The notes beneath the pieces were generated by a model, which saw only the letters and a list, made by a program, of their open reading frames with translations, was not told the origin of the DNA and made no database searches. Positions 437 through 57,990 of a stretch of DNA of 64,000 bases are shown here, piece by piece (within the stretch, counting starts at the first letter, position 1; each line of letters starts with the position of its first letter). The translations under genes and the position numbers were made by a program. Origin of the DNA: Patescibacteria group bacterium (GTDB lineage: Bacteria; Patescibacteriota; Minisyncoccia; Phycocordibacterales; BOKC01); NCBI GenBank assembly GCA_038062955.1, contig JBBTWE010000001.1, positions 453,640 through 517,639 of the forward strand. The letters are read 5' to 3'.

Positions 437-570
437 GTTATCCGACGCATCTCTGCGTTGCTGATTTCTGCGCTTCAGAAATCATGTCGGAATATTTTTT
501 ATCACAAAGTGATATAAAATTTCCGACTCGCTCGCGCCTTGATCTGCATTCAGCTACCTAAATTCTAAAG
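437..570 (+). repeat. Dispersed intergenic repeat family, copy A (short form)
   Basis: Shares ccgacgcatctc..., gaaatcatgtcgg..., tatcacaaagtgata..., ccgactcg..., gcgccttgatctgcattc... with copies at 9335, 12230, 12752, 52618 and 55392. Confidence 0.85.
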
Positions 571-669
571 TATAGTATATCAAGCTCTTGGATTAAGAAA
601 AACCGGCCACCAAAAGTTTGCTTTTTAAACTATAGTATGTTTTACTCTGAACCAGAAAGGAGACAATAA

Positions 670-1131
670 ATGGATACGATTCTAAACCTGCTCTATCCAC
701 AAGATCAGATCTTTGTCAGCAATCCACGTTTCTCTGTAGAAACTCCGACTGTGACTGTTACTTGTTTAGTGTCTGGGATTCAGAACTACACAATCAAGCG
801 AGTGCCTTACATCACCGCCGAAAATTACGTTCGCATTCTGTCACAGGCATGCTATTTACTCGCCCACCATGTTTTGGGAACGGGACAGATAGATATCGGC
901 CTCAAGCAAGACGATTTCCTGCGAGCAATGCTTGATTTTGAGCTCTATTATCGCAACCTAGCAATGACATTTCACGAAAGGGTGGGAAGAGATGTTCCGT
1001 TTGAGATGACACTTGATCTCAAGGACGTTCGAGAAATCAAACGACTTGGAGATTTCATCATCTTCTCGTTCGCCAATCAGCGAACCGTGATAAGCGGAGA
1101 AATGAGTTTCGTTTACACAAGCCACAGGTAG
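670..1131 (+). CDS. Hypothetical protein, 153 aa
   Basis: RBS aaaggagacaataaATG. Rho-independent terminator follows at 1153-1185. No recognisable motif. Confidence 0.6.
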   Translation: MDTILNLLYPQDQIFVSNPRFSVETPTVTVTCLVSGIQNYTIKRVPYITAENYVRILSQACYLLAHHVLGTGQIDIGLKQDDFLRAMLDFELYYRNLAMTFHERVGRDVPFEMTLDLKDVREIKRLGDFIIFSFANQRTVISGEMSFVYTSHR

Positions 1132-1152
1132 TGGCGAGCAAGGCTCTCGGCA

Positions 1153-1185
1153 CACAACACCACATTAATCAGTGGTGTTTTTTAA
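1153..1185 (+). terminator. Intrinsic terminator (aacaccac/gtggtgtt stem plus T-run)
   Basis: GC stem-loop followed by TTTTTT immediately after the 670-1131 ORF. Confidence 0.7.
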
Positions 1186-1335
1186 TGATTACGCCGCTCA
1201 ATCAGCAAAACTCTTTTAGCAAACAATTTTGGATCAAGTGATTTTTGGATACTGTGTAAATAGAATTTTATCTCTTTTAAAATAGCTAAGTGTTGAGCCG
1301 TTATTAGTAAAGTTTTTGAACTTTTTTTCCTCATT

Positions 1336-2461: not shown

Positions 2462-2572
2462 CGATCCGTAAAACTTTCACTTTTTGGATGCAGACCGAGG
2501 CGCAAGCGAGAACCGTACCGAGCCGTATGTACTTATACGGTGAGGGAGGCTCGGAGCGAAGTAACAAAGGTA
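2462..2572 (-). repeat. Dispersed intergenic repeat family, copy E (hairpin-module form)
   Basis: The reverse complement carries cttcgctccgagcctccctcaccgtat...atacggctcggtacggttc...cttgcgcct..ctgcat, matching copies F, G and B. Confidence 0.8.
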
Positions 2573-2591
2573 TGCACCAAAAATGGAAGTT

Positions 2592-4952
2592 TTACTTGGC
2601 ACTTATTGTCTGTTCTGCAGGTATATCAATCTCACAAACCCCTCCCACACAGGCAAGTTCTTTTGCTCCAATTGTCTGATCTTGTTTCTCATAAAGCACC
2701 AACTTTGAGAAATCTATGTGTCCCAACATTTTCATGCGACGCTCATATTCTTCTTTATTGATTTCTTCGTAAGGTGCAAGCTGATAGACGTGATTGTTTC
2801 GTGGCAAGAATGATAGACCTCCGACCATCTCCCAGTTTTTATAAACAAAATTAGCGACAGCAATCCATTCGTTATCACCCACATAAATAGTCGCTGATGG
2901 GTTGTGTTCAGTGAAATTATTTTTGAGTCGTTTCCATTCCTCAAGCATTTCAATTGCTGTCACATCCTTGTTTACCATTGCACCTTCAGGCGCTTTACAT
3001 GGAAATTCAAGAACCATCGTTGAAGCATTCGAGGTTGAATATCCAACTTCCGGATTAAATGGCACGCCTTGATCTTGAGCGAGTTTGAGTAATGGATCAT
3101 TTACTGAAATTCGAACCCTACGAATGTAGTAACGAGAGTACCAAGTGTGCATTCCTGAACCAACTCCTAAAAGTTGTCCTGAATTGCCGTGTGGCTTTAC
3201 ACAAGTGATAGCTGTGGATTCATTAACACCAAAACGTTTGGCGTACTTTTTATTTGTCTTAATTGCTTCATCACGAAGAGTTTGGAGATTCTTATCATCG
3301 CGAATTATTTTATTGTCATAGTAGCCGGTAATAGAAACTCCGAGAAGTTGTTCTTTCTCACAATTCTCTTTCCATTCTTTCGAGAGATATTCAAAATTTG
3401 TAAGAGTTGCTTGATATGTACCAAGAATAGTCGCTAGGCGAATTTTTCTCTTTAAACTTTCCATCGTGTCAATTGGACGCACCACAATAGAAGTAAGGTT
3501 GCAGAATTGTTTTGATTGCAGATAAATTTCTCCGCAAGGATTCATTCCCGGCTGTTTGGCAGTCTTGAGATTCTCCCATCTTCTTTTTGGAACTTGGAAT
3601 TTGAGTCCTTCTCGATTGAAAATGCCTCGCTCACCAGAATGAGAAGTTACAAGGGCGGTCCATTCTTCGAGAAATTCTTCTGCTGAAGGTTTGGCTTCGT
3701 AAACTGCTGAATTATTGGCCATTGATCGCTGGCCATCTGTCTGCCAAAAAGCGCCCTTTTTAGAGTCACGCATCTCACGGTCATCAAGAGCCGAAAGAGA
3801 GATAAGGGCACTGCGGCGAACTCCTCCAGCAACCACAATAAGACCTATCTGGCAGATAATATCGTGCAAATCGAGTGTGGTGAGCCTTCTACCTTGTCGA
3901 GCAAGGATTTTTCGGCGAGTAAATTGCATGAGCTCCATAAGAGGAGCAGGTCCTGAAGCGCGACCTCCCATAGTTACAAGCTTTGCGCCAGCAGGACGAA
4001 TAAGAGAATAATCAAATTCCACATCCATTCCTTTTTCCCAGACTTCACAAGCGGCAACAAAAGCTTTACACCAGCCGATCTTGCTGTCTTCTACTACAAT
4101 TTTTGGAGCTTTCTCTCCTGTTTGTTTTTGAATTTGAGGAAACTTGCCAACGTTTTCAGGTTCGACAGAAAATCCACAGCCGGCACCGCACATCGAGACA
4201 TACATTATTTCAGAAAGATCCTGCCATTTTGTTGGAGCAATGTATGCGCAGTTATAAGCAGTCACGTTTGTCTGACGACAAGCTTTGCCAGAAGACCAGA
4301 GAAGTCGCATTGAAGGACAAACTTCTTGCTTTAATATTCCCTCTCGTACTTCCGAATATTCTGCCGGGGTGAGTTTGGAACCCATGTTTTCTTTCATGTA
4401 GTCCATGAAGCGATCAATTGCTTCTACCCATGTTTCTCTGCGTCCCAATTCTACTCGCCATCTTGCATAAAATTGATAGAAAATAAATTCTTGGTATGGA
4501 GTTTTAAAATATTTACTGCTTTCGGCAATTTTTTGTTTCACTTCGAGAGGCACCATTTCACTTTGTTCCCTGACTCTTGTTCTCTCTTGTCTATAAAGAA
4601 TGTAATTTTTGGCAGTATTAATATATTCAGAAACCATGAGCTCCTTCTCTACCGAATCCTGAAGACCTTCAACGGTTGGAACAAAATTCTTATATTTTTT
4701 AGAAATTCTGACGAGATCGGCAAGAACTTTATTGGCAACAAGAGCTGCTTCTTCTTCTGAACCTTCGTGAGAAGCGATCATTGCCTTATTTATTGCATTT
4801 ATGATCTTCCCCATATCGAATGCGACAATTTCTCCGTTTCTTTTCTGAATGCTTTTTATGAGTCCTGTTTTAGGCTTTGATGGAGCAGAGACAGAAGACA
4901 CACTCGAGACTTTTTTTGCAACCTTTTTTGTTTTCTTTGCCGTTTTTGCCAT
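2592..4952 (-). CDS. nrdJ: Ribonucleotide reductase large subunit with N-terminal ATP-cone, likely class II (adenosylcobalamin-dependent)
   Basis: ATP-cone motif (KRNGEIVAFDMGKI) and the RNR active-site motif NPCGEI. No nrdB-like small subunit in the window. C-terminal Cys pair. Assignment to class II rather than class I is inferred. Confidence 0.75.
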   Translation of the reverse strand: MAKTAKKTKKVAKKVSSVSSVSAPSKPKTGLIKSIQKRNGEIVAFDMGKIINAINKAMIASHEGSEEEAALVANKVLADLVRISKKYKNFVPTVEGLQDSVEKELMVSEYINTAKNYILYRQERTRVREQSEMVPLEVKQKIAESSKYFKTPYQEFIFYQFYARWRVELGRRETWVEAIDRFMDYMKENMGSKLTPAEYSEVREGILKQEVCPSMRLLWSSGKACRQTNVTAYNCAYIAPTKWQDLSEIMYVSMCGAGCGFSVEPENVGKFPQIQKQTGEKAPKIVVEDSKIGWCKAFVAACEVWEKGMDVEFDYSLIRPAGAKLVTMGGRASGPAPLMELMQFTRRKILARQGRRLTTLDLHDIICQIGLIVVAGGVRRSALISLSALDDREMRDSKKGAFWQTDGQRSMANNSAVYEAKPSAEEFLEEWTALVTSHSGERGIFNREGLKFQVPKRRWENLKTAKQPGMNPCGEIYLQSKQFCNLTSIVVRPIDTMESLKRKIRLATILGTYQATLTNFEYLSKEWKENCEKEQLLGVSITGYYDNKIIRDDKNLQTLRDEAIKTNKKYAKRFGVNESTAITCVKPHGNSGQLLGVGSGMHTWYSRYYIRRVRISVNDPLLKLAQDQGVPFNPEVGYSTSNASTMVLEFPCKAPEGAMVNKDVTAIEMLEEWKRLKNNFTEHNPSATIYVGDNEWIAVANFVYKNWEMVGGLSFLPRNNHVYQLAPYEEINKEEYERRMKMLGHIDFSKLVLYEKQDQTIGAKELACVGGVCEIDIPAEQTISAK

Positions 4953-8619: not shown

Positions 8620-8746
8620 CGTAAATTCTTTTACTTTTTGAATGCAGTACTAGGCGACAAGGAGCAAAAAGGCGAAATGTATAACTAATACTTTGAGCTT
8701 TTTTGCGACGCAGTCAACAACGTAATGCGTCAAAAATAAAAGAATT
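8620..8746 (-). repeat. Dispersed intergenic repeat family, copy I (reverse orientation)
   Basis: Near-identical to 49870-49993 (tttgcgacgcagtcaacaacgtaatgcgtcaaaaataaaagaatttta). Its reverse complement aligns with copy G (tttgacgcat...gcgcc..ctgcattc..aaaag). Confidence 0.8.
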
Positions 8747-9316
8747 TTAGAACTTAACTTCTACAGGCTGTCTTGCCGCTTCTTCATTTGCTCCCAATTC
8801 AAAGAAATCTTTTTTGGCAAATCTAAACAACGAGGCAATGATGTTTGAAGGAAAAGATTCAATGGTGATGTTTAGATCTCTAACGTTGGTGTTATAAAAT
8901 CTTCTCGCGGCTTGGATTTTATTTTCAGTGTCAGATAATTCGCGTTGCAGTTCTAGGAAATTTTGGTTGGCTTTAAGATCAGGGTAATTTTCCGAGACCG
9001 CAAAAAGAGATTTGAGTGCACCAGAGAGCATATTTTCTGCCGCTGCAACTCCTGCTACATCTCCACTAACTTCCGAATTCATAGCTCGAGTTCTGGCTTC
9101 GGTAACAGCTTCGAAAACTCCTTTTTCATGTCCCGCATAGCCTTTCACCGTATTTATTAAATTTGGGATGAGATCATATCGTCTTTTTAATTGAACATCG
9201 ATATCCGCCCAAGCTTCCATTGCTCGATTAACCATTCTAATAAAACGATTGTAAGCAAAAATAACCCACAAGACTATGGCAACTAAGATGGCTATCAAAA
9301 TAGAATTTAGATTCAT
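8747..9316 (-). CDS. lemA: LemA family protein
   Basis: N-terminal TM followed by YNRFIRMVNRAMEAWADIDVQLKRRYDLIPNL, typical of LemA. Confidence 0.8.
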   Translation of the reverse strand: MNLNSILIAILVAIVLWVIFAYNRFIRMVNRAMEAWADIDVQLKRRYDLIPNLINTVKGYAGHEKGVFEAVTEARTRAMNSEVSGDVAGVAAAENMLSGALKSLFAVSENYPDLKANQNFLELQRELSDTENKIQAARRFYNTNVRDLNITIESFPSNIIASLFRFAKKDFFELGANEEAARQPVEVKF

Positions 9317-9334
9317 AATTGTTAGTACTTACAT

Positions 9335-9525
9335 ATCCGACGCATCTCTGCGTTACTTCGCTCCGAGCCTCCCTCAACGTATCATTAAATACGTCTCGGT
9401 ATGGTTCTGATTTCTACACCATAGAAATCATGTCGGGAGATTTTTTATCACGAAGTGATATAAAATTTCCGACTCGCTTGCGCCTTGATCTGCATTCGGC
9501 TCTGTAAGTCCTAAAAGTTAGTTTA
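9335..9525 (+). repeat. Dispersed intergenic repeat family, copy B (longest form, carries all modules)
   Basis: Contains the ccgacgcatctc start, the cttcgctccgagcctccctc...cgtctcggtatggttc hairpin module, the gaaatcatgtcgg...tatcacgaagtgata...ccgactcg module and the gcgccttgatctgcattc tail. Confidence 0.85.
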
Positions 9526-9624: not shown

Positions 9625-9672
9625 CTAAATATAAATAAAGGGCGACCATGGCTGTTTTTGCCTTGGTCGCCC
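9625..9672 (-). terminator. Intrinsic terminator for the 9704-10162 gene
   Basis: On the minus strand, gggcgacc...ggtcgccc stem followed by a T-rich run. Confidence 0.6.
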
Positions 9673-9703
9673 CTCGTTGTGTGTGCTCATCGATCGCAAC
9701 TTG

Positions 9704-10162
9704 CTACCTTGGCAAGCCAACAAGCCACACGTCTTCGTTGTACCAATCGTCACTAGAGCCAGCGCGTACGTGAACGCAACGCTCTCCCGTAAGCACATCG
9801 AAGATCAGGAAACACCATTCGCCATTCTCATTCTGCCAATGAGTAGCATGGAAATGAGTACCGACAAGGGCATCGACTTCAATCGCGGCCATGAGAGAGT
9901 ATGGGTCGGCAGGCTTAAGACCCTCCTGCCAGAACGCTTCCTGGAGATCGGTGTCCGAGATGCGACCCCGCTTAGGCAGATTGGGCTTAAAGAAAATGAC
10001 TGTAACGGGATCCCACATGCCACGGGGCATTGTATCCATCACATCATCATCAACGTACTGCAAACACTTCGTTGCACTGAGGGCTTCTTGGGGAGAACGG
10101 GAACGATCCACCTGGACACGACGAAGGATTCTATTACCAGACTGAGCAAACGGTTGAGACAT
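9704..10162 (-). CDS. GC-rich hypothetical protein, about 152 aa, likely horizontally acquired
   Basis: About 52% GC against roughly 30% genome background. RBS ggaggtg before ATG (MSQPFAQSG...). Terminator downstream. HFHATHW motif. No family recognised. Confidence 0.6.
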   Translation of the reverse strand: MSQPFAQSGNRILRRVQVDRSRSPQEALSATKCLQYVDDDVMDTMPRGMWDPVTVIFFKPNLPKRGRISDTDLQEAFWQEGLKPADPYSLMAAIEVDALVGTHFHATHWQNENGEWCFLIFDVLTGERCVHVRAGSSDDWYNEDVWLVGLPR

Positions 10163-10546
10163 GACACACCTCCTCGATGTGTTGGAATTGGATTTGTGAC
10201 TTAGCGAAGTTGTCTGCCTCATCGGCAGATAAACTTTGCCACAGCAGGAGATAGCCCTGTAAAATTGATTCAGGATTCATGAAGCATGATTCAAGAATAA
10301 ATACAGAGCGAGCATCTGCTGTGGCAAAACCCTAGGAAAACGGGCAAGTCAGTGAGTTTTTAATGAACAATTTTCTGCGTCTAGCATACACATATTCGTG
10401 TATTTTGTCAATAATCAATGCGCCTGCCTCACCCTACACAACATAATAGAAAGAGACTAGCGAGCGCGGCGGCGCAAGCTCGAGGAATTTTCTAGCAAGA
10501 AAATATCCGTGCTCTTTCTGTTATGTTGTGTGGGGGTGGGACAAAA

Positions 10547-12335
<1,789 letters not shown>

Positions 12336-12751: not shown

Positions 12752-12864
12752 AAATTTAAAAACTTTCAGATTTGAGCGCGGTTTTAACGAGTCAGAAATT
12801 TTATATCACTTCGTGATAAAAAATCTTCCGACATGATTTTTGTGGTGCAAAAATCAGAAATGTG
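12752..12864 (-). repeat. Dispersed intergenic repeat family, copy D (inverted relative to copy C, upstream of groES)
   Basis: Reverse complement is about 95% identical to copy C. Confidence 0.85.
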
Positions 12865-13004
12865 CCAAATGAGGAAGTTTTTTGGGGTGGACGTATTATA
12901 GAGGAATTAAAAACAGTAAGTCAACAAAAGAAGATTCCACTAGAGTTTATAGATTTTTATCTAGGTCATATAAAACGATAACTCCACTGACTACCACGGT
13001 CATC

Positions 13005-13380: not shown

Positions 13381-15231
13381 GTGTTTTATATTCGTGTCAT
13401 TCGAATGCATTCGTATATTGGTGTCGCACTCATCATGGAAGAACTAAATCAGGATTTTTATCCAAAATTCGACAACACAAATTCTTTTTCAAATAAAAAA
13501 TCAAAAAGATGGCTTGGCCGTCTTGATTCAAGATTGAAAAAAATTCTTTCCAACTTATCAATTGTGGAGAGTTTTATTTTTTATTTATTTGTCGTTTTGT
13601 TTGCTTTCTCGGGGTTGTTTATGTTTTTTCAGTTAAATAACGTTTTCATGACGGAAGTTCCTGCTAAAAGAGGTTCTATAACTGAAGGTGTGATTGGCTA
13701 TCCTCGAGCAATCAATCCCCTTCTCGCGAGCGACTCCTCCGAAGCAGATAAAGATTTGGTGCTTTTAGTTTATTCCGGACTTCTCAAGGCGACCCCGGAA
13801 GGCGACCTGATCTCTGATCTAGCCGAGAGTTACAAAATTTCTAAAGACGGTTTAACGTATAGTTTTAAACTTAAAGATGATATCTATTTTCATGATGGCG
13901 TTGCAATCAAAACGGCAGATGTAAAATTTACAATTGAAAAAGCTCAAGACCCTTTAACTAAGAGTTCGGAAAGAATTAATTGGGACGGAGTACAAGTTAA
14001 GATATTGAATGACAAAGAATTGGACCTCGTCTTACCTCAAGCTTATGCCCCGTTTTTGGAAAATGCCACTCTCGGAATACTCCCTAAACACTTATGGGAA
14101 AATCTTGATGCAAATCAATTTGCTCTAAGTCCATTAAATTTGGAACCAATAGGATCTGGCCCTTATAAAGTTGAAAATATAAGAAGAGACAGAGACGGAC
14201 TCCCAATTTATTATTCTCTTGGATCATTCAAAAAATATGCCCTTGGACAACCTAATATTAAAGACATTTATCTAAAATTCTTTCTTAATGAAGAGAATTT
14301 GATTTTGGCATTTGAAGATGGACAGATAGAAAACATAAACAGCATTTCGCCGGGAAAAGCATTATCTCTTAAAAAAGATGGCTTTGAAATAAAACGCGCA
14401 ACCCTTTCAAGAATTTTTGGAGTATTTTTCAACCAAAGCCAAGCTCCAATATTCACCAACAAAGAAGTTCGCAAAGCTTTGGAAATGTCTGTCGACAAGA
14501 ATGCTTTAATCGCAAAAGTTTTAGCTGGTTATGGAAAACCAGTATCAAGCCCAGTCCCAATACAGTACCAATTGGTAAAAGAAAAGGAAGATACGCAATC
14601 AATTGAAGAAAGATTGAGTGAGGCAAGATTGATTCTTCAAAACGGCGGTTGGAAATTTGACGACGATAAAAAGCTTTGGACGAAGAAAGTGAAAGACGAA
14701 GAACTTGAACTAAGTTTTTCAATTTCAACAGCTGATACGCCTGATCTCAAAGCGGCCGCGCAGATCATAAAAGATAATTGGGAAAGTTTAGGCGCCAAGG
14801 TAGATGTTAAGGTTTTTGATTTAAGCGATCTAAAACAAAATATAATAAGGCCACGCAAATACGAAGCATTGCTTTTTGGTACAGTCATCGGACGCGATTT
14901 GGATTTATATCCATTCTGGCACTCATCACAGAGAAACGATCCGGGACTCAATATTGCGCTTTATGTAAACAAGGAAGCCGATAAAGTTTTAGAAGGGATT
15001 AGACAACTGACCGACAAAACACTCCGACTTCAAAAATACGCTGAATTTGGAAAGATGATCGAAGAGGATACACCTGCTGTCTTCATTTATTCTCCCGAAT
15101 TTATTTATTTAGTGCCAAATAGAATTAAAGATATTAAACTTGATTTTTTGACCACTTCAAGTGAAAGATTTTTAAACATTGAAGATTGGTATGTGGAAAC
15201 AGATAAGGTGTGGAAAATATTCGCAAACTAA
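13381..15231 (+). CDS. ABC transporter substrate-binding protein, family 5 (peptide/nickel type), membrane-anchored
   Basis: N-terminal TM segment and SBP_bac_5-like architecture. Start could be the internal M at 13435. Confidence 0.7.
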   Translation: MFYIRVIRMHSYIGVALIMEELNQDFYPKFDNTNSFSNKKSKRWLGRLDSRLKKILSNLSIVESFIFYLFVVLFAFSGLFMFFQLNNVFMTEVPAKRGSITEGVIGYPRAINPLLASDSSEADKDLVLLVYSGLLKATPEGDLISDLAESYKISKDGLTYSFKLKDDIYFHDGVAIKTADVKFTIEKAQDPLTKSSERINWDGVQVKILNDKELDLVLPQAYAPFLENATLGILPKHLWENLDANQFALSPLNLEPIGSGPYKVENIRRDRDGLPIYYSLGSFKKYALGQPNIKDIYLKFFLNEENLILAFEDGQIENINSISPGKALSLKKDGFEIKRATLSRIFGVFFNQSQAPIFTNKEVRKALEMSVDKNALIAKVLAGYGKPVSSPVPIQYQLVKEKEDTQSIEERLSEARLILQNGGWKFDDDKKLWTKKVKDEELELSFSISTADTPDLKAAAQIIKDNWESLGAKVDVKVFDLSDLKQNIIRPRKYEALLFGTVIGRDLDLYPFWHSSQRNDPGLNIALYVNKEADKVLEGIRQLTDKTLRLQKYAEFGKMIEEDTPAVFIYSPEFIYLVPNRIKDIKLDFLTTSSERFLNIEDWYVETDKVWKIFAN

Positions 15232-15322
15232 ACAGATTCAAGAATAGAAATAAATTACTTTACTTTATTAAACTTTTTCAACTTATAAAACTAATTAAAC
15301 TTATCAGAATTAACAAACTAAA

Positions 15323-17215
15323 ATGATTAATAGAAACGAAACAAACACAACGCCCATTGTGGTGAAAACAAAAAGAGAAGAGAGATTACCAACTAGCCAC
15401 AGCTCGCACCCACGCCGTCCACGCAGTGGCGGAAGTGGTGGTGGTAGAAGAAAAATGGGACGAAGTCAGAGAAGACCGAGCGACTTTAGACCATCTGAAG
15501 AGAGCCAAAAACGTCGAAGAGAAACGGCTGATATTCCCTCTCCAGGCGACAATATCAGGATTATTCCTCTTGGTGGCGTGGAAGAAGTCGGAAAGAATAT
15601 GACCGCAATAGAGTACAAAGATGACATTATTATAATGGACTGCGGTTTGCAGTTTAAAGATACTGACACACCTGGCATTGATTACATTATTCCCAATGTT
15701 AAATATCTAATCGAACGAAAACATAAAATTCGCGGTATTTTTATCACCCACGGACATTTGGATCATATCGGAGGAATCCCTTACGTGATTGCCCAACTTG
15801 GAAACCCACCGGTATATTCTCGAGAATTCGGAGCGCTTATGATCAGAAAACGCCACGAAGAATTTCCTCATCTACCACAGATCGATATGAGAATTCTGCA
15901 AGAAAACGAAAAGATTCTTATTGGTAAAAACTTTAAGATAGAAACTTTTGCGATTTCACACACAATCCCAGACACAGTTGGCTTCGTTATTGAAACTGCT
16001 ATCGGAAAAATTGTCTTTATCGAAGACGTGCGAGTAGACAATGTTGCTGGAGTACCGACAGAAGAAGAAGTGGAACAATATCAAAGATTTAAAGGAGAAA
16101 AGATATTGTTTTTGACTATGGATTCCACGTCTGTTGAAAAGCCGGGGTTCTCTATCTCGGAGGACGTTGTCGTAAAAAATATTGAGAAAATAATAAAAGA
16201 AGCTCCTGGTAGGCTTGTCATAGGCACTTTTGCTTCCCAAGTGGAAAGAATAATAAGCATTATCGACATATCAGAAAAATATGGAAAGAAAGTGGCGGTT
16301 GAAGGCCGAAGCATGAAGAATAATTTGGAGATTATAAAACAATTAAATCTTCTCAAAGATACCAAAAATCTTATCGGGGTTAATGAGATAAATGATTTTC
16401 CTCCTTCAAAAATCGTCATGATTACAACTGGCGCTCAAGGTGAAGAATATGCCGCCCTTATGAGAATCGCCAATAAAACTCATAAAGGAATCACTCTCAA
16501 CAAAACTGACACGGTGTTGCTTTCATCGTCTGTTATTCCTGGAAACGAATATGCGATTACCAAACTCAAAGACAATCTTTACAGATCAGAAGCAAAAATA
16601 ATCACTTACAGAGATTCAGATATCCACGCTTCGGGACACGGAAATAGAGAAGAATTGGGTTGGATTCATGAGCAGATAGATTATAAATTTTTCATGCCTG
16701 TTCACGGACATCACTTTATGCTCCGCCAACACGCTGAATTATCGGAATCATTAGGCACTCCACGAGAAAATATAGTCATTCCAGATAACGGTTCTATTAT
16801 AGAAATTTCAGCTGACGGACAAAAAATAAAAATCTTAAAAGAAAAAGCTCCTTCAAGCATGATGACGGTTGACGGGTTTTCTATTGGAGATGTTCAGGAG
16901 GTTGTTATTAGAGACAGAAAAATGCTCGCCGAAGATGGAATGTTTGTTATTATCGCAAGCATCAATGCTAAAACAGGTAAACTCAAAAAATCTCCTGACA
17001 TTATCTCAAGAGGATTCGTTTATCTTCGTGAATCCCAAGACCTACTCCAACAGACCAGAATTATAATCAAGAAGACTGTTGAGGACACGATTGCTGGTAT
17101 GAATCCAATCAATTTTGATTTTGTAAAATCAAATGTTACAGAAAATGTCACCAAATTCTTATTCCAAAAAACCGCCAAGCATCCAGTGGTTATACCTGTA
17201 GTGTTAGAGATCTAA
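15323..17215 (+). CDS. rnj: Ribonuclease J (metallo-beta-lactamase/beta-CASP) with Arg-rich N-terminal extension
   Basis: HGHLDHIGG motif, beta-CASP and C-terminal domain order. Low-complexity, R-rich N-terminal region of about 70 aa. Confidence 0.85.
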   Translation: MINRNETNTTPIVVKTKREERLPTSHSSHPRRPRSGGSGGGRRKMGRSQRRPSDFRPSEESQKRRRETADIPSPGDNIRIIPLGGVEEVGKNMTAIEYKDDIIIMDCGLQFKDTDTPGIDYIIPNVKYLIERKHKIRGIFITHGHLDHIGGIPYVIAQLGNPPVYSREFGALMIRKRHEEFPHLPQIDMRILQENEKILIGKNFKIETFAISHTIPDTVGFVIETAIGKIVFIEDVRVDNVAGVPTEEEVEQYQRFKGEKILFLTMDSTSVEKPGFSISEDVVVKNIEKIIKEAPGRLVIGTFASQVERIISIIDISEKYGKKVAVEGRSMKNNLEIIKQLNLLKDTKNLIGVNEINDFPPSKIVMITTGAQGEEYAALMRIANKTHKGITLNKTDTVLLSSSVIPGNEYAITKLKDNLYRSEAKIITYRDSDIHASGHGNREELGWIHEQIDYKFFMPVHGHHFMLRQHAELSESLGTPRENIVIPDNGSIIEISADGQKIKILKEKAPSSMMTVDGFSIGDVQEVVIRDRKMLAEDGMFVIIASINAKTGKLKKSPDIISRGFVYLRESQDLLQQTRIIIKKTVEDTIAGMNPINFDFVKSNVTENVTKFLFQKTAKHPVVIPVVLEI

Positions 17216-41679: not shown

Positions 41680-42478
41680 TCTTGGGATTATCGGGGGCTC
41701 GGGAATGTGTGCATTTCCCGAACTCAAGGTAATCTCAAGACTACGGCCTGAGACAAAGTACGGTCTTCCGTCAGACGAAATCGCGATCTGCGAGCATGAC
41801 GGACAACTCATTGCTTTCTTGCCGAGACACGGCTCGAAGCATACGCTGGCACCACACAAGGTGCCGTACAAGGCAAACCTTGCAGCCCTGAAGAAGATCG
41901 GGGTCGAATATGTCATCGGAACCTGTATTGTCGGAAGCCTTAAAAAAGAGATCGCTCCCGGCAGTCTGGTAATCCCTGACCAATTCGTCAATCTAACTTG
42001 GGGTCGTGACGACCATTCAGAGGCAGATGGAGGTTCATTCGTCCATCTGCCAATGGGGGAGCCGTACTGTGGCCACCTTCGCAAGAAGATCATGGAGCAA
42101 TCTGTTGCTACTCAGACAGCAATAATTCCGCAAGGGACGGTTGCTGTGATACAAGGTCCGCGATTCTCAACCACTGCAGAAAGCCGATGGTTTTCTGCGA
42201 ACGGATGGGACATCGTCAACATGACTCAGTATCCAGAGTGCTACTTTGCACGCGAACTCGGACTCTGTTACGCAGCAATTGCAGCGGTAACGGATTACGA
42301 TGTCGGTCTTCAGGAAAATCTTGTCATTGATCCGCGTCACATGGACGCTGTGCTCGTTGTCTTTAAGGACAACATTCGAAAAACAAAGAACTTCTTATTA
42401 GCCTTTATCGAAAGTGCGCTTGGTGATCTTTCGTGCAAATGCGCATCTGTCGTACTAAAGGCCTATTACGAAGCATAG
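41630..42478 (+). CDS. S-methyl-5'-thioadenosine / 5'-deoxyadenosine phosphorylase-like (PNP/MTAP family)
   Basis: GIIGGSG N-terminal motif, PNP_UDP_1 fold pattern. Overlaps the rSAM gene 3' end. Confidence 0.7.
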   Translation: MNSSGHDTTGPSLRKPSLGIIGGSGMCAFPELKVISRLRPETKYGLPSDEIAICEHDGQLIAFLPRHGSKHTLAPHKVPYKANLAALKKIGVEYVIGTCIVGSLKKEIAPGSLVIPDQFVNLTWGRDDHSEADGGSFVHLPMGEPYCGHLRKKIMEQSVATQTAIIPQGTVAVIQGPRFSTTAESRWFSANGWDIVNMTQYPECYFARELGLCYAAIAAVTDYDVGLQENLVIDPRHMDAVLVVFKDNIRKTKNFLLAFIESALGDLSCKCASVVLKAYYEA

Positions 42479-42490
42479 GTGTGAAAACAC

Positions 42491-42525
42491 TCCCCCGCTG
42501 AAGAATATTCTCAGCGGGGTTTTTA
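42491..42525 (+). terminator. Intrinsic terminator (ccccgctga...tcagcgggg plus T-run)
   Basis: Follows the phosphorylase gene. Confidence 0.7.
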
Positions 42526-42622
42526 TTGACCCACCTTGCTATCATTAGCGTCTCATGTTACTTTATCGTAGGAACAGTACATTTACAGTGTTATAATATG
42601 CCCACAAACAAAGGAGACAATC

Positions 42623-44299
42623 ATGCTACAAGCAAAACACATTCAAAAAAGCTACGGCGCTCTGACTGTGCTTGCTGATGTCTCCTTCTCCTTGGCTAAA
42701 GGGCAGAAGGTGGCATTAGTCGGCGACAACGGGATTGGTAAGACAACTATTCTCAAGATCATTGCCGGACTGACGGAGCCTGACGCTGGCGAGATCGAAC
42801 TCGCCAAGAATACGTACATCGGATATCTCCCGCAGGATACCAGTCTATCGGGCAATGAAACGATCAGTGCGTATTTGAGGCGGATCACAGGCATTGATGC
42901 CCTTGAGCAAAAACTCGAGGCACTTGCTTCTCACCTTGAGGACAAGGCGAAGACGGATGAGTACGGGGACGCACACGAGCAATACGAGCGTCTCGACGGC
43001 TATGCCTTTGAGCATCGCATCAAAGTGATGCTTGCAGGTTTCGGTTTTGATAACATCGGTATTGATCATCGTCTGTCCGGTTTAAGTAGCGGACAGAAAA
43101 GCAAAGTGATGCTAGCGGGGATTCTCCTCAAAGGTGTCGATCTCTTGCTTCTCGATGAGCCGACGAACAATCTTGATCTGCCAGCACTCATCTGGCTTGA
43201 GGATTTCCTCCGGAAGTCCAATGCCGCTTGCATTGTCATTTCTCATGACCGTCGGTTTCTTGACCGAGTTGTGAAGAAAATCTTCGAGCTTGACCGGCAT
43301 ACGCGCGTACTCAACATTTCAGGAGGCACATACAGTGACTATCTTGCAGTGGTGGCGAAGCGCGTTGCTCGACAAAAGGAAGAATATCGACTCCAACAGG
43401 AGGAGATAGAACGCCTTTCCGATCAGGCACGACAGCAGAGAGTTGCTTCGGCTAAGGGGTCAAACTGGCAAGGAAGCGACAATGACAAGTTCTCGCGAGG
43501 TTTCAAGCGAGACCGTGCAGGAAGATCTGGCAGAAAAGCTAAAATACTCGAAAAGCGAATCGATCAGATGGAAAAAGTTGAAAAACTCATCGAACGCGCT
43601 CCGTTTGAGATTCCGCTTAAGGCCGAAGTTGGTCCCGGAACGCTTGATATCCGTCTCCTCGACGTGGTAGCAGGATACACGGACGGCTTCAGTATCGGTC
43701 CTGTGTCATTTGAAGCACGGTATGAGAGCAGAGTTGGCATCATGGGCTTAAACGGTGCCGGGAAGTCAACACTACTCAAGACTATTACCGGCCAACTGGC
43801 GGCACGTAGCGGCACGATCGAGATTGGTTCCGGTGTTAAAATCGGAAACATGATGCAGGAGCATGAAAGCCTGCCTCGTGATTGCACGCTTTTTGAGTTT
43901 CTTAAGGAGCGTGCGGGGCTCAAAGACAACGAGGTCTACAGTCAGCTCGCAAAGTTTGGCCTCCAAGAAGGTCAAGTGAAGCAGCCAATCAGTACTCTGA
44001 GTCCTGGTGGCCGTGCTCGATTGCTTCTGGCCTTATTTTCTGCTCAGTCGGTCAACGTGTTGGTCCTCGACGAGCCTACAAATCACCTCGATCTTGAGGC
44101 GCTCGAAGCTCTAGAGGAAACGATCGAAGCCTATCGAGGAACAATATTGCTCGTGTCTCACGATCGATACTTTCTCGAAAAAGCACGACTTGATTCCACG
44201 TATACATTGTCGGAAGGGGTTCTCACCAAAATTCCTGATTACAAAACGTATGTGGCACAAGCCGAGGAGCGAGCATTGCAGCTCTTGAAGTCACTGTAG
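42623..44299 (+). CDS. ABC-F family ATPase (two ABC domains, no transmembrane domain)
   Basis: Two Walker A sites (GDNGIGKTT, GLNGAGKST), two LSGGQ-type signatures (LSSGQKSKV, LSPGGRARL), charged linker. 558 aa. GC-rich. Strong RBS aaaggagacaatcATG. Confidence 0.8.
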   Translation: MLQAKHIQKSYGALTVLADVSFSLAKGQKVALVGDNGIGKTTILKIIAGLTEPDAGEIELAKNTYIGYLPQDTSLSGNETISAYLRRITGIDALEQKLEALASHLEDKAKTDEYGDAHEQYERLDGYAFEHRIKVMLAGFGFDNIGIDHRLSGLSSGQKSKVMLAGILLKGVDLLLLDEPTNNLDLPALIWLEDFLRKSNAACIVISHDRRFLDRVVKKIFELDRHTRVLNISGGTYSDYLAVVAKRVARQKEEYRLQQEEIERLSDQARQQRVASAKGSNWQGSDNDKFSRGFKRDRAGRSGRKAKILEKRIDQMEKVEKLIERAPFEIPLKAEVGPGTLDIRLLDVVAGYTDGFSIGPVSFEARYESRVGIMGLNGAGKSTLLKTITGQLAARSGTIEIGSGVKIGNMMQEHESLPRDCTLFEFLKERAGLKDNEVYSQLAKFGLQEGQVKQPISTLSPGGRARLLLALFSAQSVNVLVLDEPTNHLDLEALEALEETIEAYRGTILLVSHDRYFLEKARLDSTYTLSEGVLTKIPDYKTYVAQAEERALQLLKSL

Positions 44300-48046: not shown

Positions 48047-48616
48047 TTAGTCTTTTGAGATGGTTTTAATGAATTGTTTTATATTTTTAATCGACTTATT
48101 TAGCACAGCATCATAAATTTCTTGTCCTGAAATATCCAAATTATGATCATTCCTATATTTTTTGAACGATAAAATTAATTCTCTTTGCTCACCTGTTAGA
48201 ACAACGTCGCCGATATTTAGAAATTTCTTTTTTCGATCTTCAAATTCTGCTCTTCCCACAAACCAAATATCTACTTTCCATTTTTCTTCCCCCAATCTTT
48301 GTTTTAAACCTATGTAATGTCCATGGGGAAATTCAGCGCCTTTACGACTATCATCCCAATCACCTTTTATAAAATAACTTCTAAACTTACCTTTCAAATA
48401 AAGAAATTTCAGTATATCCAAAACTTCTTCCGCTAAATAAGGATTTTCTCGAACAACGGTAATATCAATATCACCATGCATCATAACGTTCCCTGCATAA
48501 GCACCGGAAAAGAAAACATCACCAAAACTCTTCAGCTGACTGATAAGATCTGTCTCCTGTAGCAAAATATCTGCATTATTTTTAAACTTTCCGCTTGTTT
48601 GAGAGAGTTGAGACAT
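48047..48616 (-). CDS. Nucleotidyltransferase-fold protein (minimal NTase-like)
   Basis: FFSGAYAGNVMMHGDIDITVV fits the GS-x(9-13)-DxD NTase motif. Stop is 30 nt upstream of the ABC exporter start. Confidence 0.45.
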   Translation of the reverse strand: MSQLSQTSGKFKNNADILLQETDLISQLKSFGDVFFSGAYAGNVMMHGDIDITVVRENPYLAEEVLDILKFLYLKGKFRSYFIKGDWDDSRKGAEFPHGHYIGLKQRLGEEKWKVDIWFVGRAEFEDRKKKFLNIGDVVLTGEQRELILSFKKYRNDHNLDISGQEIYDAVLNKSIKNIKQFIKTISKD

Positions 48617-49840: not shown

Positions 49841-49869
49841 TTTGATTCACTAAAATCAAAGAGACCTAA

Positions 49870-49993
49870 ATTCTTTTATTTTTGAATGCAGTACGAGGCG
49901 ACAAGGAGCAAAAAAGTGAAATGTATGTAGTAATACTTTGAACTTTTTTGCGACGCAGTCAACAAAGTAATGCGTCAAAAATAAAAGAATTTT
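49870..49993 (-). repeat. Dispersed intergenic repeat family, copy J (near-identical to copy I)
   Basis: tttgaatgcagtacgaggcgacaaggagcaaaaaagtgaaatgtatgtagtaatactttgaacttttttgcgacgcagtcaacaaagtaatgcgtcaaaaataaaagaatttta. Confidence 0.85.
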
Positions 49994-52596: not shown

Positions 52597-52617
52597 AGTG
52601 TGTAAAACTTCTATATT

Positions 52618-52735
52618 CAGCGCATCTCATCGTTACTTCGCTCCGAGCCTCCCTCACCGTATCAGTACATACGGCTCGGTACGGTTCTCACTTGCGCCTT
52701 GATCTGCATCTGAACATAAAAGTTTTTAGTTTACT
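52618..52735 (+). repeat. Dispersed intergenic repeat family, copy F (in the lexA upstream/leader region)
   Basis: cgcatctcatcgttacttcgctccgagcctccctcaccgtatcagtacatacggctcggtacggttctcacttgcgccttgatctgcat. Confidence 0.85.
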
Positions 52736-52925: not shown

Positions 52926-52938
52926 ACAAACAGTATAG

Positions 52939-55375: not shown

Positions 55376-55391
55376 GTTTATAACTTTTGTA

Positions 55392-55505
55392 TTTGACGCA
55401 TCTCATCGTTGCTTCGCTCTGGTGCTCCCTCGTCGTATTACTGAATACGTCTCGGTTCGCTCCTCGCTTGCGCCTTGATCTGCATTAAAATCTAAAAGTT
55501 CTAAT
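55392..55505 (+). repeat. Dispersed intergenic repeat family, copy G (between the ABC ATPase and permease genes)
   Basis: tttgacgcatctcatcgttgcttcgctctggtgctccctcgtcgtattactgaatacgtctcggttcgctcctcgcttgcgccttgatctgcattaaaatctaaaagttctaa. Confidence 0.85.
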
Positions 55506-56221
55506 TATTTTGTGTAATTTTCGCTAACACGACGACCAGTCGCCAATTTTGTATCACTTTCAATCAGTCCATCTTTAATGCGGATTATTCTTCTTGCGTG
55601 TTCAGCAGTTCCTGTCTCGTGAGTAATAAGCATGATCGTCTGACCTTGATCGTTTAATTTCTGAATTATTTCCATCACAATTTTTCCCGATTTTGAATCC
55701 AAGTTTCCGGTCGGTTCATCAGCAAAAATGATGCTTGGTTTGTTTACAAGCGCACGCGCAATCGCCACTCTCTGTTTTTCTCCACCAGAAAGTTTGGCTG
55801 GTTCAAAGTCGAGACGATGACTCAAACCCACCGCCTCGATCGCCTCTCTCGCCCGAGCGTCCCACTCTGACTCCTTAACATCAGAATAAAGTAGGGGCAA
55901 TTTCACATTTTCGAGCACTGAAGTTCGTGACAATAAATTAAAAGCTTGAAAAATAAATCCTAATTTTTTATTGCGGATTTTTGCGACTTCCTCATCTGAA
56001 TATTTACCCATTTCACGTCCTTCAAAAATATATTCTCCAGAAGTATAGCTATCGAGAAAACCTAAAATCTGAAGAAGGGTTGATTTACCCGAACCCGATG
56101 GACCCATGACGGCCACAAATTCTCCAGGTTCAACTTTGAAATTTATACCATGAAGAACAGGGGTTAGAGTTTCCCCATCTTGATAGGTTTTTTTTAGATT
56201 TTTAACTTCAAGAAGCGGCAT
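55505..56221 (-). CDS. ABC transporter ATP-binding protein (MacB/LolD-type)
   Basis: GPSGSGKSTLLQILG, LSGGEKQRVAIARAL, IIFADEPTGNLD. Confidence 0.85.
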   Translation of the reverse strand: MPLLEVKNLKKTYQDGETLTPVLHGINFKVEPGEFVAVMGPSGSGKSTLLQILGFLDSYTSGEYIFEGREMGKYSDEEVAKIRNKKLGFIFQAFNLLSRTSVLENVKLPLLYSDVKESEWDARAREAIEAVGLSHRLDFEPAKLSGGEKQRVAIARALVNKPSIIFADEPTGNLDSKSGKIVMEIIQKLNDQGQTIMLITHETGTAEHARRIIRIKDGLIESDTKLATGRRVSENYTK

Positions 56222-56252
56222 AGATTAAGTCTAGATGTTACGGGTAAATCTA

Positions 56253-57794
56253 TTATTTAGTTTCTGTAAACACAATCACTTTGTCTCCCTCGGCAAGTCC
56301 TTCTGTTATTTCTACATTTCCATCAGAGCCACGAAGTCCTGTCTTTACAATTTTTTCTGCAATAGTACCGTCAATGTTCTGTACTTGAACAAATTTTTGT
56401 CCATCTCTCGAAATAACTGATCGGCCAGGCACCGCTAGAACATTCTCTTTCTTTTCACCCTTTACAGTTATGTCGGCGGTCATACCAGATTTGATTCGAT
56501 TGTCTGGCAGAGTAAATTCAAAGGTGGTTTTATAAGTCGCTACCCCATCAAGCAGAGTTTCAGCTGGATTCACAGACACCACAATCGCAGTAAACACGAC
56601 ATCATTTCCGTAAGCATCCAAGGTTACATCAGCCAAAGCTCCAACTTTCATCTTAGCAATGTCAGCCTCCGGTAAATTAGCTTCAATTTCATACTCATTC
56701 AAAGATATGAGAGAAATTACCGGTTCATTTTGAGAAATAGTTTCTCCAACTTCTGCCAGCACTTCTGTTACCACTCCATTTATTGGAGACCGAATAGCCC
56801 GGTGATTTATGGCAATTTGCGTGTCTTCGATATCAAGCTCGGCTTGTCTCACATCAATCTTAAGGCTTTCAATATCTTTATCTTCGTCAGTGATTCCCTC
56901 TTTGAAATTTTTAATATCATCTATAATCTCAAACAATTCTGAAAGATGCGTATTGATTGAGTCAGTAAATCCGTCTAGTGTTTCTTGATCTTCCACAAGT
57001 TCCTCCGGTAAGTCTTGATCGATTATTCTATTCTCAACTAAATCCACCAGATTGTTTACTTTCTTAACGACATCGGCAACGTCCTTGGCGACTTCATATG
57101 TTTGTTCAATCAATGATCCAATAGCTTCTGTCTCGGATTCTCGGTCAAGAGTTCTGTACAATTTTTGCATTGTTTCAAACTGTCTTTTGGCCGCAAAATA
57201 TGCTTTAGTTGTTTCCTTTCTCAAATCTTTGGCCGCATTTCCATAACGCAAACTAGTGACATCTCTCGATATATAATTATGAGAAAGTACATCGTCTAAA
57301 TCAGTAATTATCGAGGGTAAATCCAAAAAAGTTTCGGACACAATATTGAACCCATCTTCATAAGCAATCTTAAGATCATCTTCTGAATTAGTTTTTGTTT
57401 CCTGCTTATTTAGAGCGATTTTAGATCTCTCAAGTTCTGTTTCTTGCCTCGCAAGACGCACCCATAAGTCATCACTGTTCACTCGTAAAAGAGTTTGTCC
57501 TTTTATGATTTCTTGTCCAACTATTACATTGATAGCAACAATCTTACCACCAGACTCGATAGCCAATTCTACTTTTTCTGCTGATTCAACTCGGCCAGTT
57601 ACGCTAATTTCTTCAGCAACAGTCACAGGCACAACTTCTAAAACTTCGGTTTTGAGTTCATCACCGCCAGAAGCCATGACAAAACCACCAATTAAAAGGA
57701 TGATGGCTATGATTATCGAGAGAATTTTGTGTTTTTTCACAAAACCCCAGATTTTCCCCCAGATTTTTTTCAAGATGATTTTAATTTTTTGCAT
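56253..57794 (-). CDS. HlyD/MacA-family periplasmic adaptor (membrane fusion protein) with a long coiled coil
   Basis: N-terminal TM, biotinyl/lipoyl-like and beta-barrel segments flanking a coiled coil of about 200 aa. Head of the MFP-ATPase-permease operon. Confidence 0.75.
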   Translation of the reverse strand: MQKIKIILKKIWGKIWGFVKKHKILSIIIAIILLIGGFVMASGGDELKTEVLEVVPVTVAEEISVTGRVESAEKVELAIESGGKIVAINVIVGQEIIKGQTLLRVNSDDLWVRLARQETELERSKIALNKQETKTNSEDDLKIAYEDGFNIVSETFLDLPSIITDLDDVLSHNYISRDVTSLRYGNAAKDLRKETTKAYFAAKRQFETMQKLYRTLDRESETEAIGSLIEQTYEVAKDVADVVKKVNNLVDLVENRIIDQDLPEELVEDQETLDGFTDSINTHLSELFEIIDDIKNFKEGITDEDKDIESLKIDVRQAELDIEDTQIAINHRAIRSPINGVVTEVLAEVGETISQNEPVISLISLNEYEIEANLPEADIAKMKVGALADVTLDAYGNDVVFTAIVVSVNPAETLLDGVATYKTTFEFTLPDNRIKSGMTADITVKGEKKENVLAVPGRSVISRDGQKFVQVQNIDGTIAEKIVKTGLRGSDGNVEITEGLAEGDKVIVFTETK

Positions 57795-57884
57795 AATTGT
57801 TTAAGAAATATGGCCTTTAGTTGCACTATATAAGCACAAATTAAAAAAATCGTCAACCCTTTTGACGATTTTTCTTTTATGAAG

Positions 57885-57990
57885 AGTTCTTAGAAATTTC
57901 AGATTTGAGACAAGTTTTTTAATAAAACCGAGTACCGGAGCGAGACGTATGTACTTATACGATGAGTGGAGGAGCGGAGATTTTAGTAAA
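57885..57990 (-). repeat. Dispersed intergenic repeat family, copy H (partial, reverse orientation)
   Basis: Reverse complement carries ctccgctcctccactcatcgtataagtacatacgtctcgctccggtactcgg plus a caaatctgaaatttctaa tail as in copies C and D. Confidence 0.7.

Follow-up and report, generated by a model that had tools for sequence, protein, structure and literature searches.

The ten intergenic segments described here belong to one family of small palindromic dispersed repeats, and this family is probably a mobile element, non-autonomous and of the MITE/ERIC/RPE type. On the best reading it is a mosaic, non-autonomous palindromic element resembling ERIC, RPE and bcr1, new in CPR bacteria and of a kind already known: one more, apparently mobile, addition to the small palindromic 'selfish' repeats that E. 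coli, Neisseria and Rickettsia are known to carry.

Repeat finding and blastn (word 7) recovered from the window, i.e. the whole stretch of 64 kb that was analysed, all ten segments claimed in the initial annotation and no others. The shared modules occur far beyond chance: the left-frame 23-mer ATGCAGATCAAGGCGCRAGYGAG had five matches at up to three mismatches and a 26-mer around the 6-3-6 palindrome had four, with 0 expected for either in 100 dinucleotide shuffles. Hereafter, F is the strand that folds best and R is its complement. The positions assigned initially were right, but several ends were 10–27 nt short, and the boundaries were refined using a covariance model (CM) together with the terminal repeats (Table 1). 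Once the ends were refined, all copies displayed a single architecture, namely a non-coding imperfect palindrome of 126–128 nt that is longer where a two-hairpin module of about 66 nt has been inserted (126–193 nt over the copies). The CM matches all types globally, over positions 1–127 and on a single strand only; the copy at 12207..12331 has no match to CM R1, a model that represents module B. Both orientations occur, as first proposed, with F on the + strand in five copies and on the - strand in five. The 64 kb of the window contain 10 copies, and 14 were counted over 104.5 kb of the source genome; the density in this tiny groundwater Patescibacteria genome is approximately one copy per 7 kb.

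Table 1. Copies of the repeat and of module C in the window, with the strand of F and the position of its 3' end relative to genes.
Feature	Position	F strand	Composition	Context	Basis
Copy	427..568	-	frame 1 + module C, no B	F 3' end 4 nt before rpiB ATG	CM R1 64.1 bits, global 1-127; blastn
Copy	2468..2595	+	frame 1 + module B, variant right frame AACAAAGGTATGCACC	F 3' end supplies stop codon of - strand RNR gene; 100 nt from gap start	CM 128.5 bits
Copy	8622..8748	+	type-3, AT-rich arms TAAATTCTTTTAYTTTTTGA	F 3' end overlaps lemA stop	CM 75.8 bits; 92% identity to 49867-49993 (blastn)
Copy	9322..9514	-	frame 1 + C + B, longest copy	F 3' end 5 nt before lemA ATG	CM 74.2 bits, central insertion; blastn
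Copy	12207..12331	-	frame 2 + module C	between groES and groEL; F 3' end 7 nt before groEL ATG	92% to 12761-12879 (repeat finding)
Copy	12759..12881	+	frame 2 + module C	upstream of groES, divergent gap; exception to the polarity rule	
Copy	49867..49993	+	type-3	F 3' end overlaps stop of 50-aa DUF5670 gene (gene call in L004)	CM 88.8 bits
Copy	52602..52728	-	frame 1 + B	lexA leader; F 3' end 5 nt before lexA ATG	CM 134.1 bits
Copy	55378..55504	-	frame 1 + B	occupies entire gap from ABC ATPase stop to MacB permease ATG	CM 128 bits
Copy	57890..58017	+	frame 2 + B	F 3' end supplies LysRS stop codon	CM 53.9 bits
Module C	462..530	-	two hairpins incl. TATCAC-N3-GTGATA palindrome	inside copy 427-568	
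Module C	9405-9476				
Module C	12231-12299				
Module C	12788-12860				

The outer layer of the unit is a closing stem of 15–20 bp, which is present in every copy and constitutes the terminal inverted repeats; its sequence differs between subfamilies, the commonest form being NTAGAACTTYC...GRAAGTTCTAN'. The middle layer is a conserved 'frame', ATGCAGAYCRAGGCGCRAGCGAG ... YAACRNNGRNATGCGYC, or one of the alternative frames, and the inner layer is an exchangeable central hairpin cargo (B, C, both, or others such as those carried by copies in L018, L020 and L023). A mini form, L016:998, consists of the stem only. The four copies of module C share 87–93% mutual identity (blastn). The four shared modules recognised initially proved real, but had been written on the complement of the best-folding strand: the 'head' is the right frame GAGATGCGTC, the 'nested hairpin' is module B, the 'second module' is module C, and the 'tail' is the left frame with the terminal repeat. 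The spacer to the left of F was rejected as a part of the element, since the flanks are dissimilar between copies. The mosaic probably arose as hairpin modules were inserted, nest-like, into the centre of older hairpins or were exchanged there.

The F strand folds into a long rod. Over the aligned copies its 35 pairs are 95.7% paired, compared with 79% in shuffles and 35–43% with slid partners, and 24 of them show compensatory changes on both sides, which none of 500 shuffles reached; the conserved secondary structure proposed earlier is thereby borne out. G·U combinations outnumber A·C ones by 60 to 4, a U·G is conserved at columns 21:111, and the internal loops are GA-rich and invariant. F was more stable than R in all 37 copies tested, by about 9.6 kcal/mol and in every context (for the copy at 2468..2595, -53.3 vs -40.1 kcal/mol), and the F strand is probably under selection to fold. 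The interior is conserved, while the terminal stems vary and covary, a combination that we counted against a mobile element.

Pfam assignments agree with the gene contexts given in the initial annotation, i.e. the LexA leader, the gap between an ABC ATPase and a MacB/FtsX permease, and the stop codons of lemA and of the DUF5670 (lmo0937-like) gene, and they also place a copy between groES and groEL. Of 30 copies, 26 have their F 3' end bordering on a start codon or on an opposite-strand stop codon, and six have their F 5' end in such a place. The F 3' end was found 3–9 nt before the starts of lexA, groEL, the macB permease, lemA, rpiB and an mreB-like gene, as well as 6 nt before an initiator-like tRNA. 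In about half of the copies F is antisense to the genes touched, with its advantage over R unchanged. Most genes have no Shine-Dalgarno (SD) site, the genes neighbouring the copies form no coherent regulon, and no replication-strand bias was seen in the window (5 vs 5 under uniform GC skew). Such strong orientation polarity at gene boundaries is not predicted by symmetric cut-and-paste transposition and speaks against a mobile element.

Presence or absence of the repeat at orthologous sites was observed in six comparisons with relatives. The stop codon of the ATPase and the ATG of the permease are 1–2 nt apart in L013 and L014 and 129 nt apart in the window, and the same site of L009 holds a different subfamily. 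The site of the copy at 49867..49993 is empty in L009, that of the copy at 57890..58017 is without an element in L010, and a 52-nt gap of the window corresponds to two elements in L009. Between DnaB and RecR, the site is filled in L034 and unfilled in L032. The lexA-leader site is also occupied in L009 (L009:11498-11624), and the copies there and in the window are 82–88% identical, far above the 40–63% of four-fold sites in the flanking genes, suggesting that this copy is constrained or homogenised and is not neutral junk. Conservation of this copy was likewise counted against mobility. Short metagenome contigs break within the repeat.

In three relatives, genes contain a 126-nt variant in frame, and the reading frame is the same in all three. 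In the cysteinyl-tRNA synthetase (CysRS) of L015 it makes a net addition of 42 aa relative to two homologues, P0122 and P0123, and the same insert is present in the RNase HI of L017 and in a 237-aa protein of L024. The RNase HI insertion has a 7-nt flanking repeat and the CysRS insertion has none. Only this variant was seen in frame, most copies being intergenic. Several frames are open on both strands of the copies, and therefore no significance attaches to all three coding insertions being in the F orientation. Taken with the turnover of sites, these cases show that copies come and go at gene boundaries and that the 126-nt variant survives in frame within genes.

The MITE-like nature proposed initially is borne out by dispersal and terminal inverted repeats, and the repeat is a candidate MITE in the strict sense. 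Inspection of the flanks disclosed no consistent target-site duplication, the longest flanking direct repeats being no longer than those of a chimeric null. Two empty sites and an N-TA...TA-N' pattern would fit a TA duplication, although the terminal TA is inseparable from the inverted repeat. No conserved 4–5 nt target motif adjoins either end. The check for transposase genes covered only part of the approximately 300 kb of loci that were fetched (gene calls of L001, L009-L014 and L032-L038 plus Pfam scans, with most L015-L031 ORFs and much of the window outside this set), and no transposase with matching ends was found. Both the flanking repeats, being as in the null, and this result were counted against a mobile element. 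The only transposase seen in the annotated loci and scanned proteins, of the IS1595 type (L034:15779-16645), was rejected as a partner, its 30-nt terminal inverted repeats (TIRs) being unrelated, and the annotated loci contain no Y1/HUH or TnpB gene. A reverse transcriptase (RT) encoded 16 nt upstream of the copy L016:11235 was also rejected: it is part of a DGR whose VR/TR pair is 95% identical, its best PDB match is a 328-aa RT, and we treat the adjacency as a coincidence.

The initial annotation had not recognised a named element, and our searches agree. No copy matched Rfam, either at the gathering score or at E up to 5; viral contigs, plasmids and phages gave no match, nor did blastn against E. 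coli (5,426 genomes, 20,395 records; word 11, E up to 0.01). A scan of GTDB genomes with the 23-mer returned one divergent match, in L008 (Ca. Nomurabacteria), and did not match the source genome. A literature search found no description of MITE-like repeats in CPR/Patescibacteria.

By its features, the repeat is closest in kind to elements of other bacteria. ERIC is about 127 bp long, with TIRs and TA flanks, and affects mRNA decay (PMC3184786). Like ERIC, the repeat is an imperfect palindrome of about 127 bp that has terminal inverted repeats and a TA at each end, and it is intergenic in either orientation, co-transcription being known for ERIC and presumed here. Longer ERIC forms reportedly arise through internal insertions, in work by Wilson and Sharp from 2006. 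Unlike ERIC, it resides in a Patescibacterium, shares no sequence similarity with it (blastn vs E. coli), and has a conserved interior, covarying closing stems and strong polarity towards gene boundaries. RPE, as summarised in PMC3184786 citing Ogata et al. 2000, is a palindromic repeat of about 105–146 bp in a reduced genome, located between genes and in frame within them. CysRS, RNase HI and the 237-aa protein provide the same in-frame insertion here; in contrast to RPE, most copies are intergenic and only one variant is in frame, a comparison made by description rather than by sequence. The bcr1 repeat of the Bacillus cereus group (about 155 bp) is transcribed, is not conserved in distribution between strains, and keeps its RNA-level structure by compensatory base changes (PMC3184786). 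Dispersal, compensatory changes and variable sites are shared with bcr1, whereas bcr1 is flanked by 5-bp direct repeats and no such duplication was seen here.

About 100–160 bp long, Correia/CREE of Neisseria and RUP of pneumococcus bear TIRs, and many of their copies are near genes (PMC3184786). Their TIRs are conserved, while the terminal stems of the present repeat vary between subfamilies, and RUP has a presumed IS630-family partner, whereas none was found here. Correia and RUP duplicate a TA target, and Correia hairpin transcripts are processed by RNase III. As in BOX elements and BIMEs, a few modules are recombined in differing numbers and orders; unlike them, the hairpins are nested within one closing stem rather than arranged as a boxA-boxB-boxC string or REP arrays, and no sequence relation was found. 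Of the features that define MITEs strictly, the repeat has small size, non-coding nature, multiple copies, terminal inverted repeats and presence or absence at orthologous sites; its conserved interior and its varying, covarying terminal stems are the opposite of what a classical MITE has. The element ends contain AAC...GTT, which recalls the integron attC cores (RYYYAAC/GTTRRRY). However, attC sites lie in the same orientation between promoterless cassettes next to intI, and an attC identity was rejected on context, the copies lying in both orientations among housekeeping genes such as groESL, lexA, RNR and LysRS with no integrase array.

Several other explanations were weighed. The segments are intergenic, form hairpins and lie next to gene ends, as would ordinary intrinsic terminators or promoters, or chance AT-rich similarity. 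This explanation is refuted and retains practically no chance of being right: no matches are expected by chance, the stems are not followed by a T-run, neither terminator-like sites (9 vs 10.7 in shuffles) nor promoter-like sites (29 vs 31.2) are enriched, and the 127-nt unit also occurs within coding sequences of relatives. One of the nine terminator-like sites does fall in a copy (443-460), as the small head hairpin of 427-568 and not the whole element. We also considered, and dropped, regeneration of a -10 box by the 3' junction, the key T being present in only 4 of 14 junction hexamers. The initial annotation had left the choice between a MITE-like element and a structured-RNA or regulatory cassette, and the terminal inverted repeats, covarying structure and site presence/absence support that pair of readings. 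A structured RNA made from F for the benefit of the host, either a hairpin acting in cis within a leader or trailer or a small RNA, with mobility being secondary, is in our judgement rather unlikely. Such an RNA might regulate how stable mRNAs are and how they are processed or translated in a genome largely devoid of SD sites, and it would account for the covarying stems, invariant loops, conserved U·G, F-specific pairing, the F 3' end just before start codons and the initiator-like tRNA, and the lexA copy conserved far above neutral sites. However, the same advantage of F over R is present where F is antisense, the neighbours make up no regulon, close relatives lack the element at the same junctions, in-frame coding insertions are typical of selfish repeats, and the copies have no associated promoter or terminator signal.

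An element that moves as a single-stranded DNA hairpin, REPIN/RAYT-like or IS200/IS605-PATE-like, with the F fold recognised by an HUH/Y1 enzyme and inserted in an oriented manner, appears very unlikely. A fold that is specific to one strand whatever the transcriptional context and that tolerates G·T pairs, the finding of no consistent target duplication, the oriented relation to the flank and a mosaic composition recalling BIMEs all agree with it; the lack of Y1/HUH and TnpB genes in the annotated loci, of a target motif at either end and of replication-strand bias in the window does not, and the whole element is one long palindrome instead of carrying subterminal hairpins. We are also doubtful, if slightly less so, that F is itself the active form, either a structured RNA or a single-stranded intermediate, which propagates as such and docks directionally at gene boundaries; its 3' end would then settle beside a start codon, the 5' end of a tRNA or a stop on the opposite strand. 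If true, CPR bacteria would possess a mobile RNA module of a new kind, oriented and dependent on structure, and not a passive MITE. For the non-autonomous mobile element that we favour, transposition would be effected in trans by some enzyme, possibly one targeting TA, the copies would presumably be co-transcribed with their neighbours as self-contained hairpins, and the hairpin may matter either by helping the element to propagate or by making its presence in transcripts harmless.

Few known genomes are as small and streamlined as those of CPR/Patescibacteria. This repeat would make up roughly 2% of a 0.7-Mb genome, as extrapolated from 14 copies in 104.5 kb. It is wedged between operon genes and into the lexA and groEL leaders, and stands in frame in the CysRS and RNase HI of relatives, a load reminiscent of RPE in Rickettsia, although the two reduced lineages are unrelated. 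Such repeats break metagenome assemblies, and gene calling can be misled by stop codons supplied by the element and by 42-aa protein inserts. With its covarying stems, strict strand bias and polarity, the family is a tractable case for learning how such repeats persist, be it through harmlessness at the RNA level, a benefit to the host, or a structure-dependent transposition mechanism.

Repeat search and sensitive blastn of the segments against the window recovered all ten intergenic segments of the initial annotation, and no others. The tail-module 23-mer had 5 matches at ≤3 mismatches in the window and the palindrome-module 26-mer had 4, while neither had any in 100 shuffles. The modules described earlier were correct but had been given on the complement of the best-folding strand, and several copy ends were 10-27 nt too short; the gene contexts named there were all as stated. 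The elements lie at rpiB, gap/RNR, M48 peptidase/lemA, groES/groEL, VKOR/DUF5670, lexA, ABC ATPase/MacB permease and HlyD/LysRS.

All copies were oriented like 2468-2595(+), and the strand so read is termed F. Every copy follows one plan, in which a 15-20 bp stem (usually N-TAGAACTTYC... / ...GRAAGTTCTA-N') closes the unit around a frame and a central cargo. Frame 1 is GATGCAGAYCRAGGCGCRAGCGAG ... YAACRNNGRNATGCGYC, frame 2 is CAGATTTGAGNNNGKTTT ... AAATTGGCCAAATRTG, and the third type is AT-rich; cargo module B is a rod with a CGTAT/ATACG hairpin at its end, and module C consists of two hairpins (~66 nt). A covariance model trained on 22 frame-1+B copies gave global matches (model positions 1-127) to three further kinds, namely frame-2+B, type-3 and C-interrupted ones, on F in every case, and these are therefore variants of one 126-128-nt unit. 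The two frame-2+C copies, which have no B, are tied to the family by shared modules only. Among relatives, the L023 copy has two other hairpins as cargo, those of L018 and L020 carry additional nested insertions, and a mini form in L016 is reduced to the stem. Hairpins nested within hairpins are thus the best description of the mosaic.

Element copies in the window (named by start position) and other features of the window and the fetched loci (L numbers)
Location	Coordinates	Feature	Details
Window	2468, 52602, 55378	Copies	Frame 1 + B
Window	427	Copy	Frame 1 + C
Window	9322	Copy	Frame 1 + C + B
Window	12207, 12759	Copies	Frame 2 + C
Window	57890	Copy	Frame 2 + B
Window	8622, 49867	Copies	Type 3
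L016	998-1035	Mini form
Window; L016	10234-10330; 8346-8401	Second, unrelated palindromic family	Stems TTTGCCACAGCAGGAGATAGCCC / GAGCGAGCATCTGCTGTGGCAAAA; window stems 100% identical over 24-26 nt to the compact L016 hairpin; ~45-nt loop insertion in window copy; no Rfam match
Window	10432-10535	24-bp perfect stem (CCCTACACAACATAATAGAAAGAG / CTCTTTCTGTTATGTTGTGTGGGG)	Encloses 56-nt GC-rich loop, in 325-nt gap downstream of groEL; no Rfam match
Window	20382-22847	Gene of 821-aa beta-helix protein	Internal DNA repeats: 20782-20932 vs 22372-22522 (71%); three 58-nt copies
Window	40001-44000	GC 47-50% (33-43% elsewhere); may be foreign DNA	Radical SAM (40300-41679), PNP_UDP_1, ABC-F-type ATPase (42623-44299)
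Window	30178, 31969, 33848, 38708-39799, 48047-48616	Example starts without Shine-Dalgarno, with TATAAT-like box
Window	670, 42623, 59645	Strong AGGAG sites (few genes)
L032	6585-6690	Different ~105-nt palindrome (TAGTAATTAG...CTAGTTACTA)	DnaB/RecR gap, exactly at the source species' 127-nt element site
L031; L009	12420-12461; 9838-9866	Truncated left ends of more elements (TTAGAACCTCCATTTTTGGATGCAATTC..., ATAGAACAGTAC...)	Directly 5' of complete copies
L038	1177-1247	Initiator-like tRNA-Met	6 nt downstream of element copy, upstream of tRNA-Met and tRNA-Asp genes; missed by ARAGORN, Rfam tRNA model 45.7 bits
L034 (source species)	14500-16699	IS1595-family insertion sequence	288-aa DDE transposase; 30-nt terminal inverted repeats unlike the 127-nt elements
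L016	8361-11218	Diversity-generating retroelement	VR 8983-9113 in target gene; TR 9662-9792 (95% identical); RT 10220-11218, best PDB match a 328-aa RT (E = 9e-44)

RNAalifold folded the 22-sequence alignment into a single long rod of 35 pairs, with two-sided changes at 24 of them. Paired cells amounted to 95.7%, against 79% in column shuffles, and all five pairing measures exceeded 500/500 shuffles, a control that overstates significance because the aligned sequences are kin; sliding the partners by 1-3 columns, which does not overstate it, left only 35-43% paired. Most paired columns vary; invariant positions cluster in the GA-rich internal loops and in the frame. G·U occupied 60 cells versus 4 for A·C (26 versus 4 after removal of two conserved wobble columns), and 21/22 sequences have U·G at columns 21:111. 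F was more stable than its complement in 37/37 unique copies, by a mean of ~9.6 kcal/mol, and the margin was equal for F sense or antisense to the adjoining gene; the fold is strand-specific. Because subfamily-defining compensatory changes are common to copies at different loci, we infer that at least part of the selection on the fold predates dispersal, having acted on source copies.

MacB permease homologues led to the relatives that were compared, one at 91% (aa; L009-L012) and two at 79% (L013, L014). Between the ATPase stop and the permease ATG, the window has 129 nt, wholly element, against a gap of 1-2 nt in L013 and L014; in L009 this site is occupied by a copy from a different subfamily, which shares 90% identity with copy 2468 and 74% with the orthologous copy. 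The LysRS/HlyD and DUF5670/VKOR sites, filled in the window, are empty in L010 and L009, respectively, and the latter site fits CAGTA|AATT -> CAATA[element]TAGG, i.e. a TA duplication. Conversely, the 52-nt LUD/His_Phos gap is empty in the window and holds two elements in L009. Outside the window, the DnaB/RecR site is filled in L034, from the same species, versus an unrelated palindrome in L032; gene junctions seem to be landing sites common to several hairpin families. The truncated left ends suggest that the same site was hit by insertion repeatedly, and some "orthologous" copies may be replacements. The lexA-leader copies of the window and L009 are 82% identical (88% in the core), against 40-63% for four-fold degenerate positions in four genes that flank them. 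Copies are thus not decaying neutrally but are under constraint, homogenised or the product of recent re-insertion.

A 126-nt variant with an apical loop of 5 nt lies in frame inside three genes of relatives, encoding CysRS (net +42 aa relative to the homologue P0122 and to P0123 of the source genome itself), RNase HI and, at its N-terminus, a 237-aa protein. The same reading frame is used in all three: ..PNADQGASE[NK]RTE.Y.QY..G.S.RSN.EMRR.G..Y.

Fourteen copies were found in 104.5 kb of the source genome (about 15% of that genome), which extrapolates to roughly 90-100 in total; the relatives L013, L014 and L032 (57 kb together) have none. The JGI metagenome scan yielded 17 loci with ~27 further copies, and short metagenome contigs terminate within the repeat. 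A divergent element with a GC-rich, wholly different closing stem occurs in one GTDB representative genome (L008, Ca. Nomurabacteria).

Polarity was counted in 30 copies, using ORFs of at least 50 aa and a boundary defined as within 15 nt of a coding start or stop. The F 3' end lay at such a boundary in 26/30 copies and the 5' end in 6/30 (only 3', 21; only 5', 1; p = 1e-5). The 3' end adjoins the ATG of an F-strand gene or the stop codon of an opposite-strand gene, the latter often donated by the terminal TAG or TAA of the element; the 5' end faces a 30-100 nt spacer, and the spacers of the copies have no conserved sequence in common. Regenerated stops or terminal hexamers cannot account for the polarity, because the two termini are nearly identical. 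Neither DNA strand of the window is preferred (5 to 5). Most genes in the window have no Shine-Dalgarno sequence, and in many a TATAAT-like box precedes the ATG by 7-12 nt, a pattern suggesting leaderless mRNAs or very short leaders; it is therefore likely to matter where an element inserts with respect to promoters and starts.

No Rfam family matches the copies, and the plasmid, phage and E. coli collections contain no related sequence. Terminator or promoter identity was rejected, as was, on context, an attC array. IS1595, the sole transposase seen among the loci with gene calls and the scanned proteins, was rejected as a partner since its ends are unrelated; a link to the retroelement RT of L016 was likewise rejected, the 127-nt element that begins 16 nt past its stop being taken as coincidence.

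The element differs from a textbook MITE in three ways: neither a target duplication nor, in the loci scanned, a partner enzyme could be demonstrated; it is polar; and its interior is conserved while the ends vary and covary. These misfits keep two other explanations alive: an F-strand RNA module useful to the host, which we consider unlikely, and a hairpin element of single-strand DNA moved by an enzyme of the HUH type, which appears quite improbable. We favour, with some reserve, a non-autonomous palindromic mobile family functionally like ERIC, RPE and bcr1. The family, every listed property of which has precedent among small repeats (PMC3184786), is small and multicopy, sits at gene edges, is gained and lost between relatives and is tolerated in frame; its mosaic arises via nesting, and selection keeps a self-contained hairpin on one strand.
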